NCBI GenBank assembly: GCA_037442105.1
Contig: JBBIQV010000002.1
Coordinates: 1-64,000, forward strand
Direction: 5' to 3'
Length of the DNA stretch: 64,000 nucleotides
DNA from: Nitrospiraceae bacterium
GTDB taxonomy: Bacteria; Nitrospirota; Nitrospiria; Nitrospirales; Nitrospiraceae
Both the position numbers and the translations under genes were made by a program. The notes below the pieces were generated by a model that saw nothing but the letters and a program-made list of their open reading frames with translations, was not told the origin of the DNA and ran no database searches. Positions 1,220-53,574 of the stretch are shown here, one piece after another; the stretch's first letter is position 1, and every line of letters begins with the position of its first letter.

Positions 1220-1320
1220 GGGCAATTGGCAATGGGCTAGAGGCTAGGGGCTAGGGGAAAGATGATCTGGCCCCGCGCCTCCGGTCACTTGCCACTCGCC
1301 TCTAGCCTATGGCCCTTCGC
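1220..1320. repeat. Heptamer family D (GGCTAGG/GGCAAGG) hairpin
   Basis: GGCTAGAGGCTAGGGGCTAGGGG..CCTCTAGCC; related copies near 3243-3322, 29505-29538, 41050-41108 and 52556-52630. Confidence 0.75.
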
Positions 1321-2415: not shown

Positions 2416-4207
2416 GGCCTGGTGTCGGCAGCGGTGGTGACGGAGGCGGCTCCTTACTCGCCGGCACATCCACCATCGGTTTGTTGGCCAGCAGGATATA
2501 GCCGAAACGCTGGAGGATGATGGGGAAGTCGGCTGTTTCACGGGGCAGCCTCGCGCGAAGAGAGGCCGGAAGTAGGATCATGGTGCGACCCGGCTGGTTG
2601 ACGTGCGGCAGAACGTTCGCTTCCTCTCCTGTTTGGATGAAGATGGTTTTTCGCCTCGCGTAGAAGACCGTTGAAGGTCTGGTGGAGCCATACACGATCA
2701 ATCGATCGGTCGGACTCAAATTTAACCCTGCCGCATAGGCCAGTTCCTGCGGCGGGGCGATGGCGTATCGATTGAGACGCGGCAGCATCACGACCACCAG
2801 AATGAGCGCGACGCAGGCCAGCGTCGCGCCGGCAGCCCAGAAGGCTCCGGCCCGGCGGTCCTCGCTAAGTCCGAAGTAGCTCACCAGTGCCATCCCGATC
2901 AATAAGACCGCTGCAGCAATGTATGGACCGCTTCCCAGATCGACTTGGGCAGCCAGCGGGAATTCCTTCACCAGCTTGTCCACGTTCGACGAATAGAGCG
3001 ACGGCAGCGCCGCGAATCCCAGAGCCAGGAGATAGCCAAGTCCCGTGGTCACATGGACCGAGACGCGGGTGCCCGACGTTCCTGGTTGGAGCAGCCCCCG
3101 CGACCAGTATGAGGCGGTCAGCAGGGCTGCGGCAGGGAACAGCGGGCCGATGTAGTGGGGCAGCCTCGTCGACGAGAGCGTGAAGAGGACCAGCACCGCA
3201 AGCACCCAGGCCGCGGCGAACCAATCCAGCTCGTCCTGAGCTGGCAGGCGCGAGGCACGAGGCACGAGGCTAGTGGTCGATTCGGATCTTACCTCTAGCC
3301 CCTTGCCCCGTGCCCCTTGCCAACTCTTGAACGCCTGATACCACGCCACCGGCAGCCAGCCGCTCCAGGGGAAAAATCCGAGGAGAAGTACCGGGATGTA
3401 GAAAAGGAAGGAAAACCCATGGCCTTCCATCGGGTTGAGAAAGCGCCCGACCGTATTGGCCTGTGCCGATTGAGAATAGTCCGTTCCATGGATCGAGAGC
3501 ATGGCCAGGTACCAGGGGAGAGCGAGTGCCAGAACGAGCCCGATCCCGGCCAGCGGGAAACCGGTCTGCCAGTAGTGACTCCAGCGCTTCGCCAGAGTCA
3601 GATAGACGGCGACGGTGAGCGCGGGGACCAGCACCCCGACCGGTCCTTTCGTAAGTGTCCCCAGCGCCATGCCGCCATAGAAAGCCCAGAGCCAGTAACG
3701 GCTCCGCCCTTCATCCGCGAATCCCAGCCAGAATCCGAACAGCGCGAGGGTCGTAAAAAAGATGAGGACACTGTCGGTTAGCGCCATGCGGCCGAGGCTG
3801 ATGATCTCCACATTCAACAGGAGCATCAAACTGCCGAACAGCCCGACCGCCGAGCCTCGCAGTCGGGTGAGAACAAGATACTGCATCGCAATCAGCCCCA
3901 GACCGAACAGCGCCGAGGGAAACCGTGCGGCAAATTCGCTCACGCCGAACAGGCGATAGGAGGCGCTCATCAGCCAGTACAAGAAGACCGGCTTGGCGTA
4001 GCGCGGTTCATAGTTGAAGGTGGGGCTGATCCAATCGCCGGTCTCGACCATCTCGCGACCGGCTTCGGCGTTCCGTCCTTCGTCCCGGTCGGTGAGACCC
4101 AAGGCGCCGAGGTTGAGAAAGAACAAGAGCCCGGCGAGCGCCAGCAAAGCCAAAAGGTGATGAGTGATGAGTGATCGGTGATGAGTGGGGAACGGTGTCT
4201 TACTCAT
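2411..4207 (-). CDS. ArnT-like GT83/PMT_2 polyprenyl-phosphate-sugar glycosyltransferase
   Basis: DRDEGRNAEAGREM, KPVFLYW, ARFPSA and LTKGPVG motifs; polytopic membrane protein. Confidence 0.9.
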   Translation of the reverse strand: MSKTPFPTHHRSLITHHLLALLALAGLLFFLNLGALGLTDRDEGRNAEAGREMVETGDWISPTFNYEPRYAKPVFLYWLMSASYRLFGVSEFAARFPSALFGLGLIAMQYLVLTRLRGSAVGLFGSLMLLLNVEIISLGRMALTDSVLIFFTTLALFGFWLGFADEGRSRYWLWAFYGGMALGTLTKGPVGVLVPALTVAVYLTLAKRWSHYWQTGFPLAGIGLVLALALPWYLAMLSIHGTDYSQSAQANTVGRFLNPMEGHGFSFLFYIPVLLLGFFPWSGWLPVAWYQAFKSWQGARGKGLEVRSESTTSLVPRASRLPAQDELDWFAAAWVLAVLVLFTLSSTRLPHYIGPLFPAAALLTASYWSRGLLQPGTSGTRVSVHVTTGLGYLLALGFAALPSLYSSNVDKLVKEFPLAAQVDLGSGPYIAAAVLLIGMALVSYFGLSEDRRAGAFWAAGATLACVALILVVVMLPRLNRYAIAPPQELAYAAGLNLSPTDRLIVYGSTRPSTVFYARRKTIFIQTGEEANVLPHVNQPGRTMILLPASLRARLPRETADFPIILQRFGYILLANKPMVDVPASKEPPPSPPLPTPGR

Positions 4208-4213
4208 CGCCCA

Positions 4214-4513
4214 TCACCCATCACCGAGTTTGCTGTCCGCTGTTCGCTGCTTGCTGTTGGTATAGATCAACATGAGGTTACGGAGATAGACGAATGTCCC
4301 CACCCCCTGACCGGCGATGAAGACAGGATCTTTGCGGTAAATCGCGTAGGCCAGGGTGATCAAACCGCCGATGAGACTCAAGTACCAGAACGTAATCGGG
4401 ATTTGGCTTTGGGCGCTCCGCTCGGATGCCCACCACTGGAACACCCAACGCATGAAGAACAGACCTTGGCCGAGAAAGCCGATCGCGATCCAGATGGTGT
4501 CGATGGAGATCAT
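4214..4513 (-). CDS. LAB_N (lipid A biosynthesis N-terminal domain) small membrane protein
   Basis: GQGLFFMRWVFQWWASER, FWYLSLIGG and DPVFIAGQ signature. Confidence 0.9.
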   Translation of the reverse strand: MISIDTIWIAIGFLGQGLFFMRWVFQWWASERSAQSQIPITFWYLSLIGGLITLAYAIYRKDPVFIAGQGVGTFVYLRNLMLIYTNSKQRTADSKLGDG

Positions 4514-4929
4514 GAAACAGGTGTGATGGGTGATGGGTGATGGGTGATGGGTTTGTGTTTCAAAGACCGGAGGAGACCGAGCAACATTTTCCGGATATGC
4601 TCGATCCGATCGAAGACGCTGCCGTCTGAAAACATCCCCATATCCCGTGCGAGCAGCAGTTGAGTTTCCAACTCAGCTATCGAGCCGAGGGATACATAAA
4701 GATACTGAACGAACTCCTTGCGCGACTTCCTGGCCGCCCCTTCTGCAATATTACTGGGTATCGAGACAGCGCAACGTCGTGTCTGTAAGGTCAGGCCATA
4801 GGTTTCTTCCTTTGGAAAGCCGGCGGTCAATTTGTATGTCGTTCGAGCGAGGGTCATCGCCTCCTGCCATACGTCCAGGTCCTTGTGGGTTCTCGGACGG
4901 TTCTTGTTCGTTTCCTCAAAACTCATCAC
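4510..4929 (-). CDS. Four-helix bundle protein (23S rRNA IVP / TIGR02436 family) #1
   Basis: HKDLDVWQ, FPKEETYGLT, SIPSNIAEG and GSIAELETQL motifs. Confidence 0.92.
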   Translation of the reverse strand: MMSFEETNKNRPRTHKDLDVWQEAMTLARTTYKLTAGFPKEETYGLTLQTRRCAVSIPSNIAEGAARKSRKEFVQYLYVSLGSIAELETQLLLARDMGMFSDGSVFDRIEHIRKMLLGLLRSLKHKPITHHPSPITPVS

Positions 4930-4932
4930 CCA

Positions 4933-5667
4933 TCACTCATCACGTACCCTGTACCTGAGAACCCGGGCCATCATCCACCGCACCGCGATCAGATCGTACA
5001 GGCCCTTGAAGAGACGGTTCCCGACGCCGTACTTCGAGACGCCGTGGGCGCGGGGGTGGTGGCGCACCGGCACCTCGGTCACGCGGAAGCCGTGCATCAA
5101 GGCCAGCGCCGGGAAAAACCGGTGCATGCCGTTAAACAACTGCAGCCGTTCCACCACCGCCCGCCGGAAGATCTTCAAGGAACAACCGGTGTCATGGACA
5201 CGATCGCCCGTGACGGCGCTGCGCACGGCGTTCGCGATGCGCGACGAGAGTTTCCGCACGAGGTTGTCGTGGCGGTCCTTCCGCCAACCGCACACCAGGT
5301 CGAACTCCCGAACATAGGGAAGCAGGGTACCGATGTCTGCCGGATCATTCTGCAGATCGCCGTCGATCGTGATGACCAGTTCGCCGGTAGAACGCTTGAA
5401 TCCCGCGTCGAAGGCGGCCGTCTGTCCGTAATTGCGATCGAAGTGCAAGACGGCGACGGAGGTGTACTGTTCAGCCAACTGATCCAGGATCTTGGCGCTC
5501 CCGTCCGTGCTCCCGTCGTCGATGAAGATGATTTCAAAGGGGGCCGTGCGCGACACTTCGCGGGATTGGAGAACTTTCAACAAATGTTCGGTCAGCGGCG
5601 CCAGGTTGTCCCGTTCGTCCTTGATAGGAATGATTACCGAGGCCCATGGGCGGGGAGAAACGGTCAT
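4933..5667 (-). CDS. GT2 polyprenol-phosphate glycosyltransferase (ArnC/Dpm1-like)
   Basis: DDGSTDGS, NYGQTAA, DGDLQNDP, DTGCSLK and MHRFFP motifs. Confidence 0.92.
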   Translation of the reverse strand: MTVSPRPWASVIIPIKDERDNLAPLTEHLLKVLQSREVSRTAPFEIIFIDDGSTDGSAKILDQLAEQYTSVAVLHFDRNYGQTAAFDAGFKRSTGELVITIDGDLQNDPADIGTLLPYVREFDLVCGWRKDRHDNLVRKLSSRIANAVRSAVTGDRVHDTGCSLKIFRRAVVERLQLFNGMHRFFPALALMHGFRVTEVPVRHHPRAHGVSKYGVGNRLFKGLYDLIAVRWMMARVLRYRVRDE

Positions 5668-5716
5668 GCGGAGCGACGGCTCATTTTGTACCGGCTAGGG
5701 GGACAACCACGAGGGC

Positions 5717-5745
5717 ATTGTACAGAAGGCTCTATGGACGGTCAA
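5717..5745 (-). promoter_or_regulatory. Putative sigma70 promoter for the GT2 operon
   Basis: Minus strand TTGACC-N17-TACAAT about 50 nt upstream of the GT2 start. Confidence 0.55.
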
Positions 5746-5814
5746 ACGAAGCGAAGAACACCGCTTCCAGTGATGGGGAACGGAGCGGTTCCTCATTCGC
5801 CAACCGTCATACAA

Positions 5815-6225
5815 TTACTGCTTCCAGTTGTCCACGACGAGGCTGGGAATCCGCTGAAAGTGGACGAGGTTGTTGGTAACCAACGTGCATTGGGCTTCCA
5901 GTGCCGTGGCGGCAATGAGGATATCCGCGTCCGGCAGCAGTCCGCCTCGGCGATACAGCTCTCCATATAGCGTGGCCGCCCGCTCAATGATCTGGTCGGT
6001 CAGCGGGAGGACGAAGCTGGCCTGGCAGAGTACCGCAAAGGCTGCTTCTTGCGCTTGCGCCTGCTTCGCTTTGAGCCCACGCAACAGTTCATACCGTGTA
6101 ATGATCGAAAAGGTGAGTCGCTCGTGCTCGGCAAGATAGCGCCGCACCCGTTGCGTCACGAGCGGGTGTTGCTTCAGGAGTTCGGAGAGGATATCGGTAT
6201 CGAGAAGCGCTGGCGGCTGGGGCAT
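5815..6225 (-). CDS. vapC: VapC-type PIN-domain toxin
   Basis: LLDTDILS, E, DILIAATA and LVTNNxxHF PIN acidic motifs. Confidence 0.9.
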   Translation of the reverse strand: MPQPPALLDTDILSELLKQHPLVTQRVRRYLAEHERLTFSIITRYELLRGLKAKQAQAQEAAFAVLCQASFVLPLTDQIIERAATLYGELYRRGGLLPDADILIAATALEAQCTLVTNNLVHFQRIPSLVVDNWKQ

Positions 6226-6461
6226 CAGGCGGCGGGCTCACGAAAGAAACGCTGCCGGTTCAAGGCGATGGCCTCCACCTGCTCGATCTCGTCTGCCGTC
6301 AATCCCTGGTAAACCCGCGCGGCGCGTTGCAGGATTTCGTCCGCCGGTACGGGAGTCTCGGTTTCGACCGTGACCTGCACTTCAGCTTCCTCATCGAGAG
6401 CCAATGGCTCCAAGGGGTGCAAGGCCCCATCATGGTATCGAGCTTTGACCGTCTGGCGCAT
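6225..6461 (-). CDS. AF2212/DUF104-type antitoxin
   Basis: VKARYHDGALHPLEPLALDE motif; stop overlaps vapC start; start taken at MRQTV. Confidence 0.8.
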   Translation of the reverse strand: MRQTVKARYHDGALHPLEPLALDEEAEVQVTVETETPVPADEILQRAARVYQGLTADEIEQVEAIALNRQRFFREPAA

Positions 6462-6567
6462 TGCGGTCGTGCTGTCCTGCGGCGTGGTCGAGTCAGGTTC
6501 GTGCCTCTCCGCCTGCTTGCTACGCATGATAATACAGGAAATTGGGAAGAATCGCACGTGTCGCCCG

Positions 6568-7143
6568 TCATCCCTTCTCGGTCACCGTGAAGCGCACCGT
6601 GCCCATGAGACTCAGTTCGTTGATCTGCTCGCCGACATGAATCTCGACTTTGTACCGGCCCGGTTTCCATCCGCCGGGCGGCGGGCTCAGTTTCAGGTAC
6701 CCGCTTTCGTCTTCCGTGGCGATGTACATAGAGTCCTGTGCGACGAGCATGGCCGGGTCGAGTCCTGCGACCTGCTCCGGGAAACAGCGCCCGAAGACGA
6801 GGAAAGATTGGTAGTGCTGGTGGAGCTGAAACACGAGGTAGACCGCGGGGGAATTCGGCCGAAACTGTTCGGTCGGGCGGACCGGAACCATTTCGTGCGT
6901 GCGGCGAAAGCCCAATTCTTCGTCGATATCCTCGGCGGCCTGAATCGCGCGGAACATCCCTTCGGGTGGCGCGTCGAAGTTGTAGGGCTTGATGTCTTGC
7001 TGGCGGTTCTGGAATTCGGGGATCGGGACGTTGGGCGTCAGCTTCAGCTCTTCGGCCTGGACGATTCCGGTGCAGGGCAACAGCCCCCAGACCGTGGCGG
7101 CCGCGACCAGCCGGCGCCGCATATCCTTTGCATGTCTTGCCAT
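6568..7143 (-). CDS. Hypothetical exported protein
   Basis: Signal-like N-terminus (RRRLVAAATVWGLL..VQA) and Ig-like C-terminus (PPPGGWKPGRYKVEI); start uncertain. Confidence 0.6.
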   Translation of the reverse strand: MARHAKDMRRRLVAAATVWGLLPCTGIVQAEELKLTPNVPIPEFQNRQQDIKPYNFDAPPEGMFRAIQAAEDIDEELGFRRTHEMVPVRPTEQFRPNSPAVYLVFQLHQHYQSFLVFGRCFPEQVAGLDPAMLVAQDSMYIATEDESGYLKLSPPPGGWKPGRYKVEIHVGEQINELSLMGTVRFTVTEKG

Positions 7144-7347
7144 AGGGTCTTGGTACACGTCACACAGCGTGGCTGTCAAGCGATGCTGACTACTGAACGC
7201 TCGTCGTGCCGATTGCACGTCAACGAAACCATCTGTTAGAATTCGCCTCCCTTGAGATACAGAAGCGAATAGCGAACAGCTAATAGCCGGCAGCCGACCA
7301 TGCAAAGCTATGAAGCCGTGAGCTATTCGCTACTCGCTCTATTCGCT

Positions 7348-8805
7348 ATGCTGCAAAACGAAGACGCGCTACCTCAACCGATCGGCGACTATAAGCCCGT
7401 CGATCGGTGGCAGGCGCATATCAACGAATTGTTCTATCGGCTTCGGGGAAACCAGCTCCGTCACTATTACCAGACCTTTGCGTCCGCCGATTATCGGCTC
7501 GCGCACGCGCTGGCCGCCGATTACTACGAGCGCGCATGCGCGCGCGAGAAAGTCGCAAGTCGTCAATCGGCAAACGTCAATCGTCAACCGACCGATCCCT
7601 CACCCATCACTCATCACCCATCACCTCTCACGATCCTGGAACTCGGCCCCGGCAACGGCAACCTCGCCGCCTGCTTCCTCACCCATCTGAAAAGCCTCGA
7701 TAAGGATGGGCGGATCTATCCGCGAGTGCGCTATGTGCTGGTGGATTCCCATCAGTCCACCTTGGACGGCGCCAAGGCTCATCCCGATCTCGCCCCCCAT
7801 CTGGATCGCGTGGACACGCTCTGCGCCGGCGTGGAGCGCCTCAGCTCCGTGGCGGACGGTACGGTCGATCGGGTGATCTGTAGCGAGCTGTGGAACGACC
7901 TGCCTACCAAGCTCATGGTTCGGAAAGAGGGCGAAATTGAAGAGGAGCATCTGCGACCCAACCTGAGCGAGACCAAGCATGCCGCGATCGAAGATTGGTC
8001 CGGGTTCGTCAGGGCCTTCGACGCCAAAGATACGGAGACGCTCAAGACGTTTCCTCCATTCTTCGAAGACCTTGTCTGGGAAAAGGAATATCACAAGGTC
8101 GAGTGGAAGGATGTACCCTACCGGAAGACCATCAGCGAGTTCTTGAAACAGATCGACGAGCAAGTGCTGGTGCCGGTCAATCTAGGCGCCTGCGCAACAG
8201 TCAAGGAAGCCAAGCGCGTGTTGGCAACCGATGCGATCGGCTTCAGCGCGTTCGATGCCGGCACCGTCGACATGAAAGTCTTGAACGATCCGGAGAAGCC
8301 CTGCTACGGGCAATTCGGCGGGCAGTACAGTTTCATGATCAACTTTGCCCTGGTGGAGGCGGTGGCGAAACAAGTGGGTGTTCCCAAAGTCGGCATCGAA
8401 ACCCAACGCGAGTTCGTCGGGCAAAGCTTGCGCACCAATGTCTTGCTGTTAGTCGATCTACTGGCGGTTCACCCCTCCGCCGGGGAAACGATGCAACCTT
8501 GGCAGCAGGATCGGCTGACGATCAAGACGATCGGCGCCTTGAACCGCACCTACCAAAGTCCCTATCGGCGGACGCTGGATTTCTCGCTCCACAAGGACAT
8601 GCCGGCGGAAGAACGGGAGGCGTTGCAAGGGATCGTGTCGTCGTTGAAGCGCGACGGGGTGCCGGATACCGTGGCCTACCTGACGGAAGAAGAGCTCTTC
8701 GCGGCGATGAAAGATCTCGAAGAACTGGGCTATGAACGCGACACCATCCTCATGGCCCTCAATGCTCCCCCTGCGCCGGTCGAGTATCGGCACTTTTCAT
8801 TTTGA
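7348..8805 (+). CDS. SAM-dependent methyltransferase (MidA/NDUFAF7-like)
   Basis: ILELGPGNGNLA SAM motif, YVLVD and ELWNDLP. Confidence 0.8.
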   Translation: MLQNEDALPQPIGDYKPVDRWQAHINELFYRLRGNQLRHYYQTFASADYRLAHALAADYYERACAREKVASRQSANVNRQPTDPSPITHHPSPLTILELGPGNGNLAACFLTHLKSLDKDGRIYPRVRYVLVDSHQSTLDGAKAHPDLAPHLDRVDTLCAGVERLSSVADGTVDRVICSELWNDLPTKLMVRKEGEIEEEHLRPNLSETKHAAIEDWSGFVRAFDAKDTETLKTFPPFFEDLVWEKEYHKVEWKDVPYRKTISEFLKQIDEQVLVPVNLGACATVKEAKRVLATDAIGFSAFDAGTVDMKVLNDPEKPCYGQFGGQYSFMINFALVEAVAKQVGVPKVGIETQREFVGQSLRTNVLLLVDLLAVHPSAGETMQPWQQDRLTIKTIGALNRTYQSPYRRTLDFSLHKDMPAEEREALQGIVSSLKRDGVPDTVAYLTEEELFAAMKDLEELGYERDTILMALNAPPAPVEYRHFSF

Positions 8806-8956
8806 ATAGCGAGTAGCGAACAGCTCTCGTAGCCGGAAGCTGGTAGCGAATAGCTGGCAGCAAGTAGCCCGGACCTCCGAGCTATTCGCTGTTCGTTATT
8901 GGCTGCTGGCTTTTTCCTCGCAATTGGCAATTGGCTATCCGCTCTCTAGAAACTGC

Positions 8957-8985
8957 TTGACTAATTGCAGAGACTTCTATAGCCT
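8957..8985 (+). promoter_or_regulatory. Putative sigma70 promoter for the tat genes
   Basis: TTGACT-N17-TAGCCT. Confidence 0.4.
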
Positions 8986-9104
8986 CTGCCCCGTTTATGG
9001 CGTAAAGAGTGAATAGCTAGAAGCTGGCAGCCAATAGCTGTAAGGGATTTGCTGCTCGCTTTTCGCTGTTACCTATCGGCTATTCGCTGTCTTGAGGTGT
9101 GGCG

Positions 9105-9398
9105 ATGTTCGGATCGTTCGGGTGGATGGAGCTCATGCTGATCTTGATCATCGTGTTGATCATTTTCGGCGCGGGCAAGTTGCCGCAACTCGGCGAAGGG
9201 CTCGGCAAGGCCATTAAGGGATTCAAGAAGACGGTGCATGAACCGGACGCGATCGATGTCACCGCCGCGCCGGCCGAGCAGGCGCCGGCAAGCCAGCCTT
9301 CTCAGCTCGCCCAAGCCACTCCAACGATGCAGCAACCGGCGCCCCCCGCAAGCTCCACGGCGGCGGGACAGCCGGGCGGACAGGCGAAACAGGGATAA
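9105..9398 (+). CDS. tatA: Twin-arginine translocase TatA
   Basis: [42 protein letters not shown]. Confidence 0.93.
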
Positions 9399-9499
9399 GG
9401 GTACAGTGAGCGGTGATGGGTGATGAGTGATGGGTAACGAGGACCGTCGAGACCGATCACTGATCACTCATCACCGATCACCCATCACAGGGTTGAGCT

Positions 9500-9796
9500 A
9501 TGTTCGGTCTCGGTGCCGGCGAAATATTGATCATCTTGATCATTGCTTTCCTGCTGTTCGGACCCAAGCAATTGCCGGAAGTGGGCCGGCAAGTCGGGAA
9601 GGCGGTCAAGGGATTTAAGGAAACGGCGGAAGATCTCCGGAAGACCGTCGAGCCGGAGCTCAATATGATCCAACAGGAGGTCAAGATGGCGGAGCAGGAC
9701 CTCCAGGCGTCGATGAAGGAGGCGGAAGAGGAGATCACCGCCGCCACGAAACCGGCTGAAGCGGCGAATAGCGAACAGAAAACAGCGAGCAGCTAG
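9500..9796 (+). CDS. tatB: Twin-arginine translocase TatB/TatA-family subunit
   Basis: MFGLGAGEILIILIIAFLLFGPKQLPEVGRQVGKAVKGFK with coiled C-terminus. Confidence 0.75.
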   Translation: MFGLGAGEILIILIIAFLLFGPKQLPEVGRQVGKAVKGFKETAEDLRKTVEPELNMIQQEVKMAEQDLQASMKEAEEEITAATKPAEAANSEQKTASS

Positions 9797-9994
9797 TAGA
9801 AAACAGCGAGCGGCGAGAAGCGAATAGAGAATAGCGAATAGCTCGGAGGTCCCGGCTACTCGCTACCGGCTACCAGCTATTCGCTGGTAGAAGCGAGCAG
9901 AAAACAGCGAATAGCAAGCAGCGGAAGAAGAGCCTCATACGCTACCAGCTATTCGCTGCTCGCTGCTAGCTACATGTGCTGAGCGACGAAGAGC

Positions 9995-10567
9995 ATGGCC
10001 ACACTCACATCACCGATGACAGTCGAACAATTCTGGAAGCTCTGTGGCGACGGGCGAGGGCGTGAACTTGTAGCAGGGGAGGTCGTCGAGGTGGCGCCGG
10101 GATCGGTCGAGCATGGAAGAGTGGCTCTCACAGCAGCCTTTCCTCTTCAGGTGTTTCTGCGGGAGCACCCGATCGGGGAAATTCTTGGGAACGACACCGG
10201 CTTTCTCCTCAGCCGCAATCCGGATATCGTCCGAGGTCCTGATATCGCGTTTGTGCGTCGGGAACGACTGGCGAATCTGCCACGCGAAGGCTTTTTCCCC
10301 GGCGCGCCCGATCTCGCTGTGGAGGTCGTGTCGCCGAACGATCTGGCGCAGGAGGTCGAACGGAAGGTGCAAGACTATCTCACGGCCGGTGCCGCGTTGG
10401 TGTGGGTGCTCTATCCCGAAACCCGGCATGTGATGGTCTATCGGCCGGGAGGAGAGGCGCGGGTCTTGAGCCGGAAGGACGCGCTGGAGGGGGCTGACGT
10501 GCTGCCTGGGTTTACGTGCAAGGTGGAGGAACTGTTCGGAAGGAACGAGCCGCTTCTTCGCAAATGA
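9995..10567 (+). CDS. Uma2-family (DUF820) endonuclease
   Basis: ELVAGE, H, GPDIAFV, GAPDLAVEVVSP, KVQDYL and LPGF motifs. Confidence 0.92.
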   Translation: MATLTSPMTVEQFWKLCGDGRGRELVAGEVVEVAPGSVEHGRVALTAAFPLQVFLREHPIGEILGNDTGFLLSRNPDIVRGPDIAFVRRERLANLPREGFFPGAPDLAVEVVSPNDLAQEVERKVQDYLTAGAALVWVLYPETRHVMVYRPGGEARVLSRKDALEGADVLPGFTCKVEELFGRNEPLLRK

Positions 10568-10576
10568 TGGTAATGA

Positions 10577-10852
10577 TTGACGGAAGACAGGAGTTCGATA
10601 CAGTACCAAAGCAATCGCTGAGATATTCTTCGCCGGGTGGAAAGAAGGGGGGTGACGCGCGATTGAAACATGCATGACCCGGACGTGCGGGTCACCCTGA
10701 AACAGAAGGCCATGAACAACGTTCGGAGGGCTGGGCACAACGCTCTCCGAAGTGAAGCAGGGAAAGAACAGGGACGGTGAGTTCATAGTGGGAAAGGTTG
10801 GATGGACCCAACCTTACGGGGAGAGAGGCACGTATCTAACAGGAGGAACGCT
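10577..10852 (+). promoter_or_regulatory. Putative promoter plus long structured 5' leader of porin gene 1
   Basis: TTGACG-N16-TACAGT at 10577-10604; hairpins at 10675-10694, 10722-10751 and 10794-10815; AGGAGG at 10841. Confidence 0.45.
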
Positions 10853-11842
10853 ATGAGAAGCATCCATGGAGGGAAGCGGTGGGCCGGTTTGGCCACCATC
10901 GTCGGTGCTGCAGTGGCTGCGGTCCTGCAATTGTTCACCCTACCTGCCTTCGCGGGGTTTGAGCTGCCCCCGGGCGAACGCATCACGAACCTGCCCCACA
11001 TTCCTCGGTCCATTCCGCAAAAGGAAGCCTACGAGATCTACGATCCGGTTATCGGCCGGAACTTTGACGTCAAGAACTTCTGGCTGCGCGCAGACCTGCG
11101 CGTCAGGCCGGAGTTCCGGACGAACGCCTGCTTCGGAGCAGCGCAAGGAGGAGGGGGGGCGTGCAACAGCTTTCAAGGCGGTGCCAATCCTGCTCAATCC
11201 AGACAGGCTGCAGGAAAAGCCAACGACATGTATGTCCAACAGTGGGTGCGGTTGGGCATCGGCTATGACCTGTCGCCGGACGTCAACTTCTACATGGAAA
11301 TTATCGACTCGGCCGTGTGGGGNNNNNNNNNNNNNNNNNNNNNNNNNNNNNNNNNNNNNNNNNNNNNNNNNNNNNNNNNNNNNNNNNNNNNNNNNNNNNN
11401 NNNNNNNNNNNNNNNNNNNNNNAGCGGCACTGGCTGTAAGTCAGCCAACACCTTTGAGAACTTCTTCCCGACAAACCACATCCACATGGGCTACATGGAC
11501 ATCCAGGCCTGGAAGAACATGTTGGCACCTCAGGCCAACTTACAGTTCCGTCCGAGCACCAGAGACCATGTGGAGTTCTGGTACAGCAATCTGAATCTGG
11601 CCAGCTCGAAGGACTGTTGGTATCGAGCCGCTCAAGGCTGTTACGTGAACTCGAAGGTGAACAACACGAAGACCCACATCGGCGACGAACTCGACATTAC
11701 CTGGACCCGCATGTTTGCCGATGGCAAGGTGGCGTTCCAAGCGACCTACGGCCATATGTGGGCCGGCGGCTACATCCAGGAGAACCTGGGACAGAGCAAA
11801 GACCAGTCCTGGGGCTTCGCCCAGATCTGGATGAATTTCTAG
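10853..11842 (+). CDS. Alginate-export-family outer-membrane porin, copy 1 (interrupted by assembly gap)
   Basis: N- and C-terminal parts align by eye with the 14173 gene; TFENFFPTNH motif; C-terminal Phe; 100 N at 11323-11422. Confidence 0.8.
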   Translation: MRSIHGGKRWAGLATIVGAAVAAVLQLFTLPAFAGFELPPGERITNLPHIPRSIPQKEAYEIYDPVIGRNFDVKNFWLRADLRVRPEFRTNACFGAAQGGGGACNSFQGGANPAQSRQAAGKANDMYVQQWVRLGIGYDLSPDVNFYMEIIDSAVWXXXXXXXXXXXXXXXXXXXXXXXXXXXXXXXXXXSGTGCKSANTFENFFPTNHIHMGYMDIQAWKNMLAPQANLQFRPSTRDHVEFWYSNLNLASSKDCWYRAAQGCYVNSKVNNTKTHIGDELDITWTRMFADGKVAFQATYGHMWAGGYIQENLGQSKDQSWGFAQIWMNF

Positions 11843-11994
11843 CTGCGAGCGAACAGCGAATAGCTGGTAGCGAACAGCTAGAAAGAGCGAGTAGCTAACA
11901 GCGGGTAGCGAATAGCTATGAAACAGAGAGCAGCGAATAGCCGGCGGTAAGCAGTCCGAGGCTATCAGCTACGAGCTACCTGCTATTAGCTTAG

Positions 11995-12363
11995 GTGATG
12001 CGCGATTTCAGACAATTCACCGTATGGAAGAAAGCGCGTAATCTCGTGATGGATGTGTACAAAGAATCAGCCCGGTTTCCTGTGTCGGAACAGTATGGGC
12101 TGACCAGCCAACTCAGAAGGGCTGCGGTGTCTGTTGCGGCGAATATCGCCGAGGGCTCAGGTCGGGGAAGCGATCAGGAGTTTGCGCGCTTCCTCGATAT
12201 GGCTCACGGCTCCGTGGCGGAAACCCATTCTCATGTGATGCTGGCCTGCGATCTTGGCTTCATGAAGCCTCAGGTCGCGGAACGCCTTTCCGAGAAAGTG
12301 GTGGAAATCAGACGAATGTTGAATGGACTGAGCGAGACGTTACGAAAGAAGAATGGTGAATAG
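11995..12363 (+). CDS. Four-helix bundle protein (23S rRNA IVP / TIGR02436 family) #2
   Basis: FRQFTVWKKA, FPVSEQYGLTSQLRRAAVSVAANIAEG and GSVAET motifs. Confidence 0.92.
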   Translation: MMRDFRQFTVWKKARNLVMDVYKESARFPVSEQYGLTSQLRRAAVSVAANIAEGSGRGSDQEFARFLDMAHGSVAETHSHVMLACDLGFMKPQVAERLSEKVVEIRRMLNGLSETLRKKNGE

Positions 12364-12472
12364 CCATGAGGCGAGTAGCTAATAGCGAGCAGCGGGTAGC
12401 TCGGAGGTCCGGGCTACTTGCTGCCAGCTATTCGCTATTCGCTACTCGCTATCAGCGTAAAAGGAGGACACG

Positions 12473-12874
12473 ATGAGAAAAGTGATGTTACTCGCGGGAG
12501 CAACCGCCATGGTGTTCATGTGGGTGCCGTTCGTCGCGCAGGCCGATCCGATCGCGCTCACCAACGAGGCGATCGTGGAATTGACCGATGCTCCCGGTCT
12601 GGGCAAGCGGACCACGGTGGATTTGAACAAGCGGTGGGGGTCGGACGTGGGCGTGATCAAGAGCGCAACCGCCAAGCTCCAGCAGGCTTTGAGCGAAGCG
12701 GGCGGCAATGCGAACGCCCGGCACCAACTCGAGATGGCGGTCGGTTATGGCAGTGCACAGTTACACAAGGAGGCCCGCTTGTCCGCACAGGGCGCGCTCT
12801 ATTATCTCTGTCAGGGCGCCTCAGGGCCAGGCTGCGATACGGTGCCCAAGTACGGCAGCTACGTGGCGCCGTAA
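12473..12874 (+). CDS. Small exported helical hypothetical protein
   Basis: AGGAGG RBS, signal peptide ending AQA, C-terminal Cys pair. Confidence 0.75.
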   Translation: MRKVMLLAGATAMVFMWVPFVAQADPIALTNEAIVELTDAPGLGKRTTVDLNKRWGSDVGVIKSATAKLQQALSEAGGNANARHQLEMAVGYGSAQLHKEARLSAQGALYYLCQGASGPGCDTVPKYGSYVAP

Positions 12875-13018
12875 AAGAGCGAATAGCTGATAGCTAGTAG
12901 CGGGTAGCCGGAAGTCTCTGAGCTACTCGCTACCAGCTACTTGCTATCTCGTCTGTTCGGGCAGATCCGTCCTCGCGTCAGATGGGGAGAGGGTTTGGGT
13001 GAAGGTAGAAGGACAAGC

Positions 13019-13273
13019 ATGGAAGGCCAGGAATTTAATTTCACGGTCATCTTCGAGCCTGCCGAGGAGGGGGGATATATCGTGATCTGCCCAGCCTTGC
13101 CTGGTCTGGTCACGGAAGGTGATACGCTGGAAGAAGCGCGTCAAATGGCGAGGGATGCGATCCGAGCTTATTTGGAGAGTCTCCATAAGGATGGCCTGCC
13201 AATCCCACCCGACAAGGAAATTATGCTCGAGCCTGTCAAGGAAAAAGTCAGCGTCACTCTTGAAGCCGCATGA
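13019..13273 (+). CDS. hicB: HicB-family antitoxin
   Basis: FEPAEEGGYIVICPALPGLVTEGDTLEEARQMARDAI. Confidence 0.9.
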   Translation: MEGQEFNFTVIFEPAEEGGYIVICPALPGLVTEGDTLEEARQMARDAIRAYLESLHKDGLPIPPDKEIMLEPVKEKVSVTLEAA

Positions 13274-13500
13274 GCCGGCGCCTGCCTGCGCTTCGGCCTC
13301 GTGCCGTGTTGCAAGCGCTCCAACGGGCCGGCTTCTTTCTCCATCACACCACAGGTAGCCACTAGATCCTCAAACATCCGGAGAAACCGAAGCTCAGAGT
13401 GTGCGTGGCCTATCACGGCAAGGATCTCAAGCGGAGAACGCTCGAGTCGATTATCGAACAGGTTGATCTGACCGCCGAAGAGTTTTTGAAACTGTTGTAG
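13270..13500 (+). pseudogene. hicA: HicA-family toxin with internal TAG at 13363-13365
   Basis: Manual translation MSRRLPALRPRAVLQALQRAGFFLHHTTGSH*ILKHPEKPKLRVCVAYHGKDLKRRTLESIIEQVDLTAEEFLKLL*; ATGA overlap with hicB. Confidence 0.85.
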
Positions 13501-13517
13501 GGGGCAATCGAGAAATT

Positions 13518-13556
13518 CCCTCTCCCCCGGCGGGAGAGAGGGAAGGGTGAGGGAGG
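13518..13556. repeat. REP-like palindrome CCCTCTCCC..GGGAGAGAGGG..GGGTGAGGG
   Basis: Related copies at 12984-13005 and 46663-46713. Confidence 0.7.
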
Positions 13557-13565
13557 CGCAACGAG

Positions 13566-14126
13566 CTATTCGAAAATCTGGAGAAGAGCGATCCGGATGT
13601 CTGGCAGTAGAGCAGTTGTGAGGGTGTCTCCCGCCTCTTGACTGAGTTCTGCAGCTCGAACGTAGCCCTGGTCGGCCATTCTGTACACTTTCACGGTTTC
13701 CAGTTCGGGGTCCACGATCCAGTATTCGGGGATGCCGAAGCGTTCATAGAGTTTACGCTTGATGATCTCGTCGGTTTTGCGGGTGGACTCGGAAAGAATC
13801 TCAACCACGAGATCAGGGGCGCCGTGAATGTGGGTTTCCGTGATGATCGAGGACCTGGAGGCGTTGACAAAGAGGAGATCCGGCTCGACGACATCCAGAT
13901 CCGAGAGGACGACATCGGTGGGCGCTGCAAAGACCCGCCCGAGACGGTGTTGGTGAACAAAGAGTCCCAAGATTCGGTGCAAGTTAGAGGAGACGATCTG
14001 ATGCTTGGTCCTGGGTGCTGGAGTCACAAAATGCTCTCCCTCGATGAGTTCGTGGCGTCTCCCGTCATCGGGGAACAGGAGATAGTCTTCGTAGGTAAAT
14101 TTGACACGTTGCGTTTGGGGTGCCAT
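13566..14126 (-). CDS. Uma2-family (DUF820) endonuclease
   Basis: TYEDYLLFPDDGRRHELIEGE, EPDLLFV, GAPDLVVEILS and EYWIVDP. Confidence 0.92.
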   Translation of the reverse strand: MAPQTQRVKFTYEDYLLFPDDGRRHELIEGEHFVTPAPRTKHQIVSSNLHRILGLFVHQHRLGRVFAAPTDVVLSDLDVVEPDLLFVNASRSSIITETHIHGAPDLVVEILSESTRKTDEIIKRKLYERFGIPEYWIVDPELETVKVYRMADQGYVRAAELSQEAGDTLTTALLPDIRIALLQIFE

Positions 14127-14172
14127 CTCAATCCTCGTTCGCTGAATCCACTATAGCAGAGGCACCGCGGGA

Positions 14173-15924
14173 ATGAAAGTTTTGACAGACGTGGGGGGGA
14201 CGATGACAATTTTGCGACCGTTCTGGAGGCTTATTCTCTTCTTGCCGCTGCTGGCCGGCTCACCAGTCGGCCTGCCGGCTTCCGCCGGCGCGGGGTTCGA
14301 ACTTCCCCCCGGCGAGCGCATCACCAATCTCCCCCACATTCCCCGCGCTATTCCCCAAAAAGAAGCCTACGAGCTCTACGATCCTGTCATCGGGCGCAAC
14401 TTCGATATCAAGAATTTCTGGGTGAGGGCCGATCTGCGCGTCCGGCCGGAATGGCGGCACGGGGTCTGCTTCGGCGGCGCTGCTCCGATCGGCGGAGCCT
14501 GCAACAGTTTCGGCGGGTTCAACGGGGCCGGTGGGTCCAGCGCTTCATCGAGTCCTTCCGCGAACGGACAAGCGGGTAGGGCAAACGTGGGCAAAAGCGC
14601 GAACGACTTTTATGTCCAGCAGTGGGCGCGTCTCGGTATCGGCTACGACCTGTCGGCCGATGTGAATTTCTATTTCGAGATGATCGACTCGGCCGTGTGG
14701 GGCGGAAACGGCAGCGCCACCAATGCGGGAAATGCGGGCGACCCATTGAACCACAATTGTTCGAGCACCGCGAACGGCGCATGCCGGCTCGGTGTCCGCG
14801 CCGCCTATGTCTTGGTCAGGAATCTGGGCGATATCCAGGGACTCAGTGTGAAGGCGGGCCGGCAATATATCGTCTTCGGCAACCACTCGCTCTTCGGCCA
14901 CTTCGACTGGGCCAACACCGGCTATTCCCATGATGGCGTCATGTTCCAATACTCGACGAAGGCTTTCGACTCGTACTTGGGATGGTTCCGCCACTCGGAG
15001 ACGGACCTCGCGCAAGGGTCCCCGGTCGGCAGCGGCGGTCCCAACGTAGCCGCAGCAGGATTCGGCGGGCCGGACGCCGGCGCCGATGCGAACATGTTTC
15101 TCTTCTACAACCAGATCAAAGCGGTGCCCGGATTTTTGATCGAGCCGTTTTACGTGTACTACGACAACAACATCCATGAAACCGGTAATTCCGCTCAAGG
15201 GCTCGGGACACCCAAGAAATCTCAGCAGCGCCGCCACATGATCGGGAATCGCACGGAAATGCGAAGGGGTGGCTGGGACTTCATCAACGAGACGGCCTGG
15301 CAGTTCGGCAGCATGGCGGACGGCCTGGGCACGGACAACCAGCGCAACGTGCACATCAACGCCTGGGCGACGAGGAACTGGCTGGGCTACACGGATTTCG
15401 GCCATGCGTGGAAGCCGCGCTTCGCCGTCGGATTCGATTATGCGTCCGGCGACGGAAATGCGAACTGCGCGGTAGGAGGCACGGGAGCGCCGGCCACCGC
15501 GCAAGCCGGCTATGCCTGCCGCACCGGCAACACATTTGAGAACTTTTTCCCGACCAACTACATCCATGCCGGCTACATGCTGAACGCCGCCTGGCGGAAC
15601 TCGGTCCAGCCGCAGGTGAACATCCAAGCGAGGCCCACGCGGCGCGACCATGTGGAGTTTTGGGGGCAACTGCACTACCTGGCCAACGCGCGGGACAACT
15701 GGTATCGCGGAGCCCAGGGTGTCCTCGTCTTCTCCAGACCGGACAACACCTCGAACCACGTCGGCGACGAAGTGGACTTCGCTTGGACGCACATGTTCGC
15801 GGACGGCAAGGTGTCCTTCACGGCCACGTATGGGCACTTCTTCGCCGGCGAGTACGTCAAGAACAACCTGGGCACGAACCAAGATCAGGATTGGGGCATC
15901 GTTCAGTTGTGGATGAACTTCTGA
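14173..15924 (+). CDS. Alginate-export-family outer-membrane porin, copy 2 (start uncertain)
   Basis: KAGRQYIVFG, FDWANTGYSHDG, FDYASGD and TFENFFPTNY motifs; C-terminal Phe. Confidence 0.85.
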   Translation: MKVLTDVGGTMTILRPFWRLILFLPLLAGSPVGLPASAGAGFELPPGERITNLPHIPRAIPQKEAYELYDPVIGRNFDIKNFWVRADLRVRPEWRHGVCFGGAAPIGGACNSFGGFNGAGGSSASSSPSANGQAGRANVGKSANDFYVQQWARLGIGYDLSADVNFYFEMIDSAVWGGNGSATNAGNAGDPLNHNCSSTANGACRLGVRAAYVLVRNLGDIQGLSVKAGRQYIVFGNHSLFGHFDWANTGYSHDGVMFQYSTKAFDSYLGWFRHSETDLAQGSPVGSGGPNVAAAGFGGPDAGADANMFLFYNQIKAVPGFLIEPFYVYYDNNIHETGNSAQGLGTPKKSQQRRHMIGNRTEMRRGGWDFINETAWQFGSMADGLGTDNQRNVHINAWATRNWLGYTDFGHAWKPRFAVGFDYASGDGNANCAVGGTGAPATAQAGYACRTGNTFENFFPTNYIHAGYMLNAAWRNSVQPQVNIQARPTRRDHVEFWGQLHYLANARDNWYRGAQGVLVFSRPDNTSNHVGDEVDFAWTHMFADGKVSFTATYGHFFAGEYVKNNLGTNQDQDWGIVQLWMNF

Positions 15925-16051
15925 TTGTGAGCGAACAGCGAATAGCTGGTAGCGAATAGCAGGTCGCCGTAGGGACTGAGGACCAATTTAAGGCTGCTCG
16001 CTATTCGCTGCTTGCCGTTCATCCTTTGCTTCTTTATACTGCGCCCCAGTC

Positions 16052-17953
16052 ATGCGTCATCTGTCCCTTGATCCTCCCGATTCCTTGAACGTCCAGCCTA
16101 TCTGTGATCTCAATCATCAGCTCCGCCAGCGATTCGGCTTTACGGAGTTCCGCCACGGCCAACGTGAAGCGATCGAGGCCGTGCTCGCCGGCCGTGACGT
16201 GCTGGCGGTGATGCCGACCGGTCGGGGGAAATCGCTCTGTTTCCAATTGCCGGCGACTCTGATGCAAGGTGTGACTCTCGTCATCTCTCCGCTCATCGCG
16301 CTGATGAAGGATCAGGTGGACGGATTGCGTGCGCGCGGTATCGCGGCGTCGGCCTTTCACTCCGGTCTGTCCGAGCATGAGCGGGATCGAGTGATTCAGG
16401 ATCTGCGACTGGGACGGATCCGGCTTCTCTATCTGGCGCCGGAGCGGGTCCAACATGAACGGTTCATCCGGCTGCTCCGGTCCCTGTGGGTGTCCCGGCT
16501 GGTGGTGGACGAGGCGCATTGCATCTCCCATTGGGGCCATGACTTTCGTCCCGACTATCTTCGACTGAACGATCTGCGACGCGAACTCGGCTCGCCGCCC
16601 TGTCTCGCTCTCACCGCGACTGCGACGAAGAAGGTGCAGGACGACATCTGCGAGAAGCTGAGGCTGAACGAGCCCCTGCGCGTGGTGACCGGATTCCGCC
16701 GGCCCAATCTGCGGTTTTCCGTTCGACCTTGTGGATCGAACGCCGAGAAACTGGCGGCGTTGGAGGCGCTTCTGAGCGATGCAGTCTCGGGAAGTATGTT
16801 GATTTACTGCGCGACCAGAAAGCACGTAGAACAGGTTGCTGCGCATCTTTCCCGTGATTCCGTTCTTTCACGCCTGACGCCTGACGCCTCACGCCGGGCG
16901 GTCGGTTTCTACCACGCCGGCCTGGCTGACGACGTGCGGGCGAAGGTCCATGAGCAATTTCTGAGCGGGCAGATTTCGATCCTCGTTGCGACGAATGCCT
17001 TCGGTATGGGGATCGACAAGCCGGACGTGCGCCTCGTCGTCCATTACGATGTGCCGGGGAGCGTCGAAGCTTATTACCAGGAAGCCGGCCGGGCCGGGCG
17101 AGACGGTGCGCCGGCCCGTTGCGTGCTGCTGTTTCAGCACCGGGATGTGAGCACGCAAGAGTATTTTATTCAGCAATCGCCCGGTGGACATGCAACAGCG
17201 CTCCGGGACCTGTTGCGTCAAATGGTCGCCTACGCCTCGGTCGAGATCTGCCGCCAGTTGGCCCTCCTGGACTATTTCGGCGACGTGGAAGAAACGGCGC
17301 TGGGCCCTTGCGGCCAATGCGACCGTTGCGTGGCAGATCCAGACTCCCGCGAGACCGACCACGATCTGCTCGCCGCAGCCCGGTCCGTGTTACAGGCGGT
17401 CGCCCGATTCCACGGTCGTTTCGGCGCAACCAAGATCGTGGAGGTGTTGCATGGCAGCCTGTCAAAGTCGGTGCTGGGGCTCGGTCTTCACACCACGCCC
17501 TCCTTCGGCCAACTCAAGTTCTTGACCAGACCGGCTATCGGCCGCGTGATCCGGTGTCTGACCGCGTCGGGGCATCTCCGTATCGAGGGGCTGGAATTCC
17601 CGCTGTTGGAGTTGACCGACAAGGGGGCCCGCGTCTTAGAAGGGTCTGTTCCGCTTCTGTGGGGGCCTGATTCCGAAGAACCTTCGGCTCAGCGGAATCA
17701 GCCACGCTCCGCGGCCCAGCTCACCAGTCGGCCGGATCCAGATCTGTTCGAACGGCTGCGTCGTTTGCGGACCGAGCTGGCGCACGAAGAAGGCGTCGCC
17801 CCGTTTCTGATCTTCCACGATAAGACACTCCGGCACATCGCCGGCCTCCGTCCATCTTCGGTCGTGGCCTTACAAGAAATCCCCGGCATCGGACCGGCCA
17901 AGCTGGAACGGTATGGGCGGAAAGTGTTGGAAGTGGTGAACGGGAGCGAATAA
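16052..17953 (+). CDS. recQ: ATP-dependent DNA helicase RecQ
   Basis: MPTGRGKS, VDEAHCISHWGHDFRP, ATNAFGMGIDK, QEAGRAGRDG, Zn-binding Cys, RQC and HRDC domains. Confidence 0.95.
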   Translation: MRHLSLDPPDSLNVQPICDLNHQLRQRFGFTEFRHGQREAIEAVLAGRDVLAVMPTGRGKSLCFQLPATLMQGVTLVISPLIALMKDQVDGLRARGIAASAFHSGLSEHERDRVIQDLRLGRIRLLYLAPERVQHERFIRLLRSLWVSRLVVDEAHCISHWGHDFRPDYLRLNDLRRELGSPPCLALTATATKKVQDDICEKLRLNEPLRVVTGFRRPNLRFSVRPCGSNAEKLAALEALLSDAVSGSMLIYCATRKHVEQVAAHLSRDSVLSRLTPDASRRAVGFYHAGLADDVRAKVHEQFLSGQISILVATNAFGMGIDKPDVRLVVHYDVPGSVEAYYQEAGRAGRDGAPARCVLLFQHRDVSTQEYFIQQSPGGHATALRDLLRQMVAYASVEICRQLALLDYFGDVEETALGPCGQCDRCVADPDSRETDHDLLAAARSVLQAVARFHGRFGATKIVEVLHGSLSKSVLGLGLHTTPSFGQLKFLTRPAIGRVIRCLTASGHLRIEGLEFPLLELTDKGARVLEGSVPLLWGPDSEEPSAQRNQPRSAAQLTSRPDPDLFERLRRLRTELAHEEGVAPFLIFHDKTLRHIAGLRPSSVVALQEIPGIGPAKLERYGRKVLEVVNGSE

Positions 17954-18365
17954 GCTATCAGCGTTCAGCCGTCAGCTTTCAGCTTCTGAACAAGAGAAGT
18001 GAGCATCCGCTTGATCTCAGTAACTTTTGGTGCCAACCGATCGTATTCTGTTTTTCTCAGAAAACCTAAATCATAGGAGAGTAACAAGTGGTACTCTAGC
18101 TCACTTGCCGAGCCCAAAGAAATGAGGAGAAATCGTGCGAGTTCAGCCTCTCCATCCCTGCCGCATCCCTCGGCGATGTTAGCCGCGATGGAGGCCGAGG
18201 AACGGCGAATTTGGGTCGTTAGGCTATACCGTTCTTCCTTTGGGAAGGCTACTGTCGCTTGATAAACGGCTAGCGTAAGTCTGTGTGCTTTGTCCCATAC
18301 TTTGAGATCCCTGAAGTTTCGCATTCTTCTTAGCTGATCGCTGAAAGCTGACGGCTGACTGCTAT
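17953..18365. repeat. Heptamer family C (TCAGCNN/NNGCTGA) inverted arms
   Basis: Perfect 19-bp inverted repeat 17965-17983 / 18340-18358; also near 49755-49785, 50872-50945, 55454-55485, 55938-56022 and 58088-58148. Confidence 0.9.
17965..18324 (-). CDS. Four-helix bundle protein (23S rRNA IVP / TIGR02436 family) #3
   Basis: MRNFRDLKVWDKAH, FPKEERYSLTTQIRR, SIAANIAEG and GSASELEYHL; visibly more AT-rich than its neighbours. Confidence 0.93.
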   Translation of the reverse strand: MRNFRDLKVWDKAHRLTLAVYQATVAFPKEERYSLTTQIRRSSASIAANIAEGCGRDGEAELARFLLISLGSASELEYHLLLSYDLGFLRKTEYDRLAPKVTEIKRMLTSLVQKLKADG

Positions 18366-18979: not shown

Positions 18980-19049
18980 TCAGTCCTCCTTCGCTGGTAG
19001 CGAACAGCGAATAGCGCGTAGCGAAAATCTCGGAGCTATTCGCTGTTCG

Positions 19050-27050: not shown

Positions 27051-27180
27051 CGGAGAAGCTGATAGCCAATAGCGAACAGCGAATAGCTCAGAGCGACTGG
27101 CTGCCAGCTATTAGCTACTTGCTGGTAGCTCATGAGGCTGTTCGTTACGTGCTATTCACCGTAAGCTGCAAGTGCGATGT

Positions 27181-29393: not shown

Positions 29394-29600
29394 CGCGTGA
29401 TGGGTGATGCGTGACGAGTTTTAGGTTCTGAGGGAGCAACCTGCCATGCTCTGTTGATCCTCTCGATTCACGACACATCACTCATCACCAGGCGTCTTCC
29501 CACCGGCCTTTAGCCTCTCGCCTCGTGCCCCTTGCCCAGTTTCGTTGAATCTTTTCCCGCCGGCCCGTCTCTTATAGGCAGAACGGAAGGGGGGAACTGC

Positions 29601-32308: not shown

Positions 32309-32335
32309 AAGAGCATGATGGGTGATGGGTGATGC

Positions 32336-50220: not shown

Positions 50221-50227
50221 CAGTTCC

Positions 50228-50864: not shown

Positions 50865-50945
50865 GGGTTCATTCAGCCTTCAGCTATCAGCGTTCAGCCG
50901 AGAAGTGGCCGGAATTTCACGAATTCCAGCTGACCGCTGACCGCT

Positions 50946-53485: not shown

Positions 53486-53488
53486 GGA

Positions 53489-53574
53489 ATGCAAAATTCA
53501 AAATGAGAAATGCAAAATGGGCGAGACTTCAACGCCCTGCCAATTGTTCATTTTGCCTTTTTCATTTTTCATTT
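53489..53574. repeat. AT-rich heptamer (CAAAATG-like) hairpin
   Basis: TGCAAAATTCAAAATGAGAAATGCAAAATG..CATTTTGCCTTTTTCATTTTTCATTT; contains the thiolase stop codon. Confidence 0.75.

Follow-up and report, generated by a model that had tools for sequence, protein, structure and literature searches.

Genes of the TIGR02436 four-helix-bundle family lie between inverted arrays of heptamer repeats in a Nitrospiraceae genome and at homologous loci

Three genes for four-helix-bundle proteins, each bordered by tandem repeats of a different 7-base unit, lie within the first 64,000 nucleotides of contig JBBIQV010000002.1 of a Nitrospiraceae bacterium (assembly GCA_037442105.1); this whole stretch is referred to as the window. 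Do gene and repeats form one element and, if so, how does it spread? An earlier note on this DNA, made from the letters alone, had proposed a new element class. The cassette that we consider would consist of a four-helix-bundle gene bordered on either side by an array of 7-base units, the two arrays or arms being inverted relative to each other, with gene-less hairpins as derivatives. It is real and widespread, and the mechanism offered for it below is one of several readings.

Heptamer arrays around the genes of one protein family

All three proteins exceed the TIGR02436 cut-off of 24 bits by far, and each gene is flanked by arrays of the family that the earlier note had named for it. The three cassettes are composed as follows:

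4510..4926, minus strand: four-helix-bundle gene 1 (TIGR02436, E 7.5e-33, 113 bits)
4915..4943, minus strand: 5' arm of cassette 1, GTGATGR family; contains the stop of the upstream gene
4523..4552, minus strand: 3' arm of cassette 1, inverted complement of the 5' arm
11844..11992, plus strand: complete hairpin upstream in cassette 2, made of a long 5' arm and an inverted arm of the AGCGAAT family
11998..12363, plus strand: four-helix-bundle gene 2 (TIGR02436, E 4.7e-36, 123 bits)
12361..12455, plus strand: complete hairpin downstream in cassette 2; loop within a 41-nt stretch that recurs elsewhere
17965..18324, minus strand: four-helix-bundle gene 3 (TIGR02436, E 6.5e-38, 129 bits), between thrH and convergent recQ
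18333..18363, minus strand: 5' arm of cassette 3, TCAGC-NN family; begins at the thrH stop
17950..17985, minus strand: 3' arm of cassette 3; one extra unit in a strain contig

The association extends to the whole genome (G000; 2.81 Mb, 87% complete), in which a profile search found five TIGR02436 genes. Based on our own gene calls, period-7 arrays were present on both sides of all five, as compared to 59 of the 2,822 genes tested for flanking arrays (the five included). At a score of at least 9, and with N-runs kept in, which adds to every lag alike, 456 arrays of lag 7 were counted versus 30-56 at lags 4, 5, 8, 10, 11 and 13, i.e. lag-7 arrays are about ten times commoner than those at other non-triplet lags. 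Gene-junction zones, which make up 18% of the genome, hold 363 of the 456. A chance origin of these arrays is excluded.

Homologous loci were drawn from 40 relatives, a genome collection, a metagenome collection and 40 viral loci. Both collections were scanned once, the best 80 of about 600 being taken from each, and these outside sets favour one subfamily because they were searched with a narrow alignment. Of the 256 distinct proteins collected, 14 with truncated flanks were left out. Inverted arms, called at a score of at least 6, were detected at 167 of the remaining 242 loci, which span many phyla, and in 12 of 2,001 shifted control windows. Enrichment had been suggested by the earlier note as a check, and both comparisons bear it out. 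The period is 7 at 148 of the 167 armed loci and 8 at 17, with one locus each of period 6 and period 9; arm period seems to follow the protein clade. Period-8 arms were noticed on a related protein group (L064, L068, L341, L344, L346, L353, L356 and L357), and likewise period-9 arms (L005, L059) and period-6 arms (L008, L354), each on a related group.

Arrays are also paired where there is no gene between them. Neighbouring arrays less than 100 nt apart form 134 pairs in G000, 107 of them inverted, 7 direct and 20 unrelated. The inverted pairs are the gene-less hairpins; their polarity is nearly always fixed within a family and their loop is variable. Sixteen lie in the window, in agreement with the roughly 20 noted before if the single and chimeric arms found there are added. 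Intergenic hairpins mostly span the interval from just past a stop to just before a start, and 86 of 98 are located between co-directional genes (background 77%). A terminator or REP-like convergent role was ruled out, with convergent placement in 5 of the 98, and so was a role of the arms as suppliers of stop codons, which occur in only 73/148 of the 5' and 59/148 of the 3' consensus units.

According to the earlier note, the inverted arms enclose each gene in a stem. Folding indeed predicts a gene-enclosing stem at 4510 and 17965, and the arm duplex of cassette 1 reaches -39.6 kcal/mol compared to -18.6 when shuffled. Locus 11995, however, has the layout hairpin-gene-hairpin, and its minimum-energy fold consists of local hairpins with no gene-enclosing stem; the claim stands for the other two loci only. 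Whole-flank duplex energy was dropped as a classifier, since it is poor for A+T-rich arms: the five family genes rank 5, 25, 321, 388 and 2,422 of 2,822.

Cassette arms partly overlap coding sequence. Gene 1, whose neighbours are a glycosyltransferase gene and a small gene resembling lipid-A-disaccharide synthase, starts inside its 5' arm, reads through the 3' arm and has a stop that overlaps the start of the next gene. The cassettes are flanked by protein genes and not located inside an rRNA gene; the best Rfam match in the window is no better than E 1.1, and the G000 assembly contains no 23S gene. Gut-1 RNA (RF01706) had no match in the window up to E 5, nor in 20 loci at the gathering score. 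A 100-N assembly gap (11323-11422) lies within the gene upstream of cassette 2, a paralog of which is found at 14173-15924.

Repeat units and the encoded protein

In each repeat family the unit is composed of a fixed core, conserved at 87-100%, and free positions. The likeness of adjacent units versus random members of the family was 0.13 vs 0.09, 0.16 vs 0.16 and 0.04 vs 0.03; adjacent units are at family expectation in the TCAGC, GTGA, AGC and CGTCA families, that is, homogenisation by slippage was not encountered there. The number of cores per arm is level at 3-5 and falls sharply at 6 (135/122/132/31 in the AGC family, 56/64/13/1 in the TCAGC family). After phasing, an A-G core is present at 78% and 77% over 142 non-redundant loci. 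Judging from these patterns, an arm resembles a series of individually selected binding sites of a ring protein. Adenine mutagenesis of the kind known from diversity-generating retroelements (DGRs) was ruled out as origin of the free positions, because conserved adenines occur on both strands.

What would such a protein look like? The predicted model of the window's family protein is a four-helix bundle (pLDDT 96.9), which matches the structures 2GSC (Z 21.1), 2RLD (Z 17.9) and Avd of DGRs (Z 15.0-15.1), with unrelated bundles at 13.5 or lower. The root-mean-square deviation from Avd is 1.6-2.0 Å over 108-111 residues at about 10% identity. An Avd-like fold, in line with the relation to Avd named in the earlier note, is supported; at the sequence level, gene 2 gave a weak match to the Avd profile NF033474 (E 4e-6, 27 bits, below the cut-off of 80) and a PDB sequence search did not reach Avd. 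Both the 2GSC and the 2RLD entry contain five chains, and by analogy with these two and with Avd, assembly of the protein into a pentamer like that of Avd is likely. Within the DGR complex, each of the five Avd protomers contacts a stem-loop, and the same residues are used to read flipped-out bases (10.1101/2023.10.23.563531).

Protein clades co-vary with heptamer type, a point that the earlier note had proposed to test. The base following A-G varies with residue 54, which lies where helix 2 ends: glutamine goes with T in 29/33 and cysteine with C in 15/26, and the residue ranks first for this base when pairs are stratified by identity. Counted by clusters, the glutamine-T link amounts to 11/14 versus 24/73, and it persists with clustering at 60% (p 0.002) and at 55% (p 0.008). 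The link between residue 54 and the base after A-G is suggestive only. Arrays also co-occur with the gene, in that the patterns of three families match 22 of the 25 gene-bearing genomes and 1 of the 16 gene-less ones, and 400 kb from five gene-less genomes contained no hairpin. G039, the only genome with the gene among five of its genus, has arrays on 15 contigs.

Site occupancy, family turnover and copying

Filled and empty versions of orthologous sites, which the earlier note had predicted, were found for the cassettes of the window. Site 17965 is empty in 11/11 relatives having recQ beside thrH. Site 4510 is empty in 5/7 relatives, the sister genome G001 among them, and filled in G013, where the protein has 64/102 identical residues and a related repeat, and in G022, where it belongs to another clade (37/91 identical residues) and has another repeat. 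Gene-less hairpins of three families occupy site 11995 in G013, G022 and G011. Across 26 orthologous junctions, the repeat family differs in 48 of 69 co-occupied genome pairs. No shared ends or target duplication were seen at filled versus empty sites, but with relatives too diverged to fix the boundaries; among strain DNA contigs, joints that skip a hairpin or cassette were confined to short-sided repeat joints, none of them credible.

The turnover likewise concerns the gene-less hairpins and single arms of the window, which are listed below (no strand assigned):

1221..1314: gene-less hairpin of the GGC family, with the start of the following gene in its loop; G001 and G022 have the GTGA family here
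3246..3321: in-frame hairpin in the ArnT-like gene; another family in the same loop in G001 and G013
4157..4225: gene-less hairpin, GTGATGR; 14 nt longer in strain contigs
7264..7338: gene-less hairpin, AGCGAAT; spans a predicted start codon
7550..7631: in-frame chimeric pair, 5' arm CGTCAA, 3' arm GTGATG; relatives carry other families here
8804..8911: gene-less hairpin, AGCGAAT; loop in common with cassette 2
9406..9488: gene-less hairpin before tatA; arrays at this junction in 7/8 genomes, the families differing
9764..9971: compound gene-less hairpins, AGCGAAT
12875..12946: gene-less hairpin, AGCGAAT
16870..16895: single in-frame arm in recQ; G013 has one of similar kind, 5 other relatives have none
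18999..19068: gene-less hairpin upstream of thrH, at a junction where G001, G022 and G009 carry other families
27062..27123: gene-less hairpin, AGCGAAT; neither G001 nor G011 has it
29388..29488: gene-less hairpin, GCGTGAT
32316..32385: gene-less hairpin; overlaps the start of an RND permease gene
50872..50945: gene-less hairpin, TCAGC-NN
53488..53574: gene-less hairpin, AAAATG; between the thiolase and 3-hydroxybutyryl-CoA dehydrogenase genes
55939..56023: gene-less hairpin, TCAGC-NN
58093..58144: gene-less hairpin, TCAGC-NN

In-frame arms reside within the ArnT-like, TolB-like, recQ and 7300 genes, where relatives carry other families, and one in-frame pair combines arms of two families, a chimerism that we count among the signs of recombination. 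A YgiT-type zinc-finger gene and two small open reading frames (ORFs) at 49784-50757 lie between TCAGC-family arrays at 49757 and 50872, and a VapC-like toxin gene with a small ORF upstream (5815-6557) has no counterpart there in any of the seven relatives used for comparison. At the thrH-recQ junction of locus L275 (G009), which harbors heptamer elements in other genomes, a small gene is flanked by a different, GC-rich palindrome, and the same kind of gene and palindrome occur in G013 at the heptamer-element junction upstream of thrH. We take this gene to resemble DUF559 endonucleases.

Several hairpins are near-identical to others. The stretch 53482-53582 is 89% identical over 101 nt to a hairpin at a paralogous junction (C2:65711), far above the flanking genes with 50-73 matches per 100-column block. 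Three unlinked loci share a patch of 71-78 nt that includes a unique loop and is 94-97% identical among them. In cassette 2, a stretch of 41 nt containing the loop of the downstream hairpin recurs inverted near 8844-8884, 3.5 kb away. Such near-identity at paralogous and unlinked sites points to recombinational copying. An arm or hairpin is duplicated around the gene at 14/188 loci, the outcome that would be expected of recombination with a resident hairpin.

The genome also contains a separate REP/REPIN-like family, present at G000:C8:19900-20719 and about 37 other places, all outside the window. Its inverted ends are non-periodic (39 pairs of ends, 37 of which measure 110-397 nt) and its interiors consist of variable nested hairpins, some of AGCGAAT type; a RAYT-like Y1 transposase gene lies beside one of the copies. 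Arrays near REP-like ends number 31 of 558. None of the three PF01797 matches in G000 has a score-8 heptamer array within 1.5 kb, and one PF01797 gene is next to a REP-like element with a degenerate heptamer hairpin inside. Near-identical copies were dropped as proof of protein-driven mobility, as many of them sit inside this separate element.

Competing explanations and known systems

How, then, does the cassette spread? The best model, which we put forward tentatively, is a cassette with gene-less derivatives that is spread by recombination and biased by a ring protein. The predicted Avd-like pentamer would likely bind up to five repeat cores of one arm, and host DNA recombination or hairpin repair, likely favoured by this binding, would copy arms, hairpins and sometimes the gene. 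The copies would land in new junctions and in existing hairpins, junctions and surface loops being the places that would tolerate insertion. ORF-bearing 23S intervening sequences (IVS) could represent this same cassette after insertion into an rRNA helix. A more specific version, possible if rather doubtful, is a selfish element without a catalytic enzyme of its own, in which a pentameric ring with a simple code, clade for period and residue 54 for the base after A-G, would bind five-core arms, steer host repair into overwriting hairpins and carry its own gene.

A number of observations weigh against the ring-protein model. The glutamine-T link vanishes at 50% clustering, the residue-base link follows clades with just 3-5 tree-independent pairs (not significant), and the residue 54 column was picked after looking at the data. 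Co-occurrence of gene and arrays is confounded by kinship, as most of the gene-less genomes (13 of 16) come from other families. In many genomes an array family occurs in the absence of its cognate gene: TCAGC arrays are present in 20/24 genomes of the family, with 23 matches in G001 (99% complete). Conversely, G018, G009 and G011 have the gene, yet 180 kb contained 0 strict period-7 hairpins. Units of the GGC family are not independent (0.12 vs 0.04), arms at some other loci comprise 10-17 units, and strain contigs vary by whole units at four arrays, so slippage does occur. Part of the near-identical copying is hitch-hiking in the RAYT/REP-like element.

Unlikely, in our view, is an RNA-level regulon, in which the pentamer would bind cores in nascent mRNA and tune translation coupling or stability at operon junctions, hairpins being kept for the benefit of the host. 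The co-directional placement of hairpins, the arrays kept at some junctions in 7/8 genomes and the RNA binding of Avd are in its favour. TRAP, as a further example, binds spaced triplets. A regulatory role was also proposed for TAACTGA arrays, which lie upstream of start codons in Beggiatoaceae (PMC4679880). The turnover of families at a site, the missing gene or hairpin at the same site in close relatives, the in-frame hairpins in coding loops and the absence of a strand bias in pairing argue against a regulon.

Quite improbable is the mRNA-level IVS cassette proposed by the earlier note. Here RNase III would cut the arm stem, and the protein would package the gene-bearing RNA for reverse transcription in trans and reinsertion. 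The idea has a precedent in the 23S IVS of Coxiella, which has inverted repeats at its termini and, upstream of S23p, tandem heptamers of variable copy number, with RNase III cutting at the first repeat (PMC4990558). It further draws on the arms being about 80-85% Watson-Crick and on the fold shared with Avd, a cofactor of reverse transcriptase (RT). On the transcribed strand, however, G-U versus A-C pairs number 100:97 in 90 gene-less hairpins and 164:184 in the 167 cassettes, and arms pair with their own partner no better than with a stranger (0.800 vs 0.798; 82 hairpins). There is no sign of selection for RNA pairing, and the lack of both G-U bias and own-arm advantage weakens the mRNA-level reading, as do the in-frame hairpins and the missing enclosing stem at 11995. 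The pairing result is compatible with single-stranded RNA binding or incidental RNase III cleavage.

As the earlier note had observed, neither nuclease nor RT is encoded inside the cassettes; no RT was found among the window ORFs scanned. The single, weak RT match of G000 lies in an unrelated context on another contig (L031, G000:C14:86-3358), split over two frames that overlap, next to a type I restriction specificity-like ORF, and is presumably AbiA-like. An RT is present in 2/5 relatives, and the hairpin-rich G022 (100% complete) has no PF00078 match.

Equally improbable are passive repeats that spread through slippage, repair of hairpins, gene conversion and hitch-hiking on REPINs, with the enclosed gene as passenger: strain polymorphism in unit number, arrays without cognate genes, the arrays at REP-like ends beside a Y1 transposase system, and cis inheritance, which alone yields clade-repeat covariation, agree with them, but they leave unexplained why only this family is repeatedly enclosed, and fixed cores beside free, unhomogenised positions, the drop beyond five cores, an A-G core across phyla and the lack of hairpins in the 400 kb from gene-less genomes speak against them.

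Known systems resemble the cassette in part. The 23S rRNA IVS of Coxiella and Leptospira (S23p/23S_rRNA_IVP) share the protein family and terminal inverted arms, whereas the present cassettes lie between or overlap protein genes, have more than 100 gene-less copies and come in several repeat families per genome. In RAYT/REP-REPIN systems, one small gene is flanked by cognate palindromic repeats and many gene-less hairpins are dispersed genome-wide. The 107 hairpins found here conform to this architecture, and to this extent the autonomous/non-autonomous pair suggested by the earlier note holds; arrays that persist in near-complete genomes without cognate gene do not fit. Moreover, the cassette lacks a Y1/HUH nuclease, its repeats are tandem 6-9-mers, and G000's own RAYT-like gene has a different, non-periodic repeat. 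Avd shares the fold, and its repeated base-reading crevices are a precedent for binding, whereas its identity is low, the match stays below the NF033474 cut-off, and no RT, template repeat or variable repeat was found near the cassettes.

Heptamer tandem repeats are familiar from cyanobacteria as STRR. Xanthomonas GGGAATC repeats form 70-75 convergent inverted pairs, which are intergenic and without general association with mobile elements, and Nostoc has GGGGAYT heptamers (both PMC4692102, as far as accessible). Like ours, the repeats of Xanthomonas, Nostoc and Beggiatoaceae have period 7 and are intergenic, and matching units flank family genes, e.g. at L110 and L165; in the accessible parts, these publications tie them to G-quadruplexes or translation, and not to the TIGR02436 protein (PMC4692102, PMC4679880). 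The protein family itself is present in cas loci (PMC3936711). Already in print are the heptamers of a single IVS and the gene-less pairs of Xanthomonas. An account linking the protein family to heptamer arms in general was not found in the literature covered, supplements and most subscription papers being outside this coverage.

Taken together, two old puzzles, a widespread protein family with solved structures and no function and the unexplained heptamer repeats of many bacteria, are joined as one testable system. With three proteins and three different cognate repeats, the window provides a built-in specificity matrix for binding assays, and if binding were programmable by few residues, the protein would be a compact repeat-reading scaffold. 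Since hairpins rewrite protein termini and loops, annotation is affected. Should the selfish-element reading be true, it would explain ORF-bearing rRNA intervening sequences, the heptamer excess of bacterial genomes and, likely, the origin of Avd.

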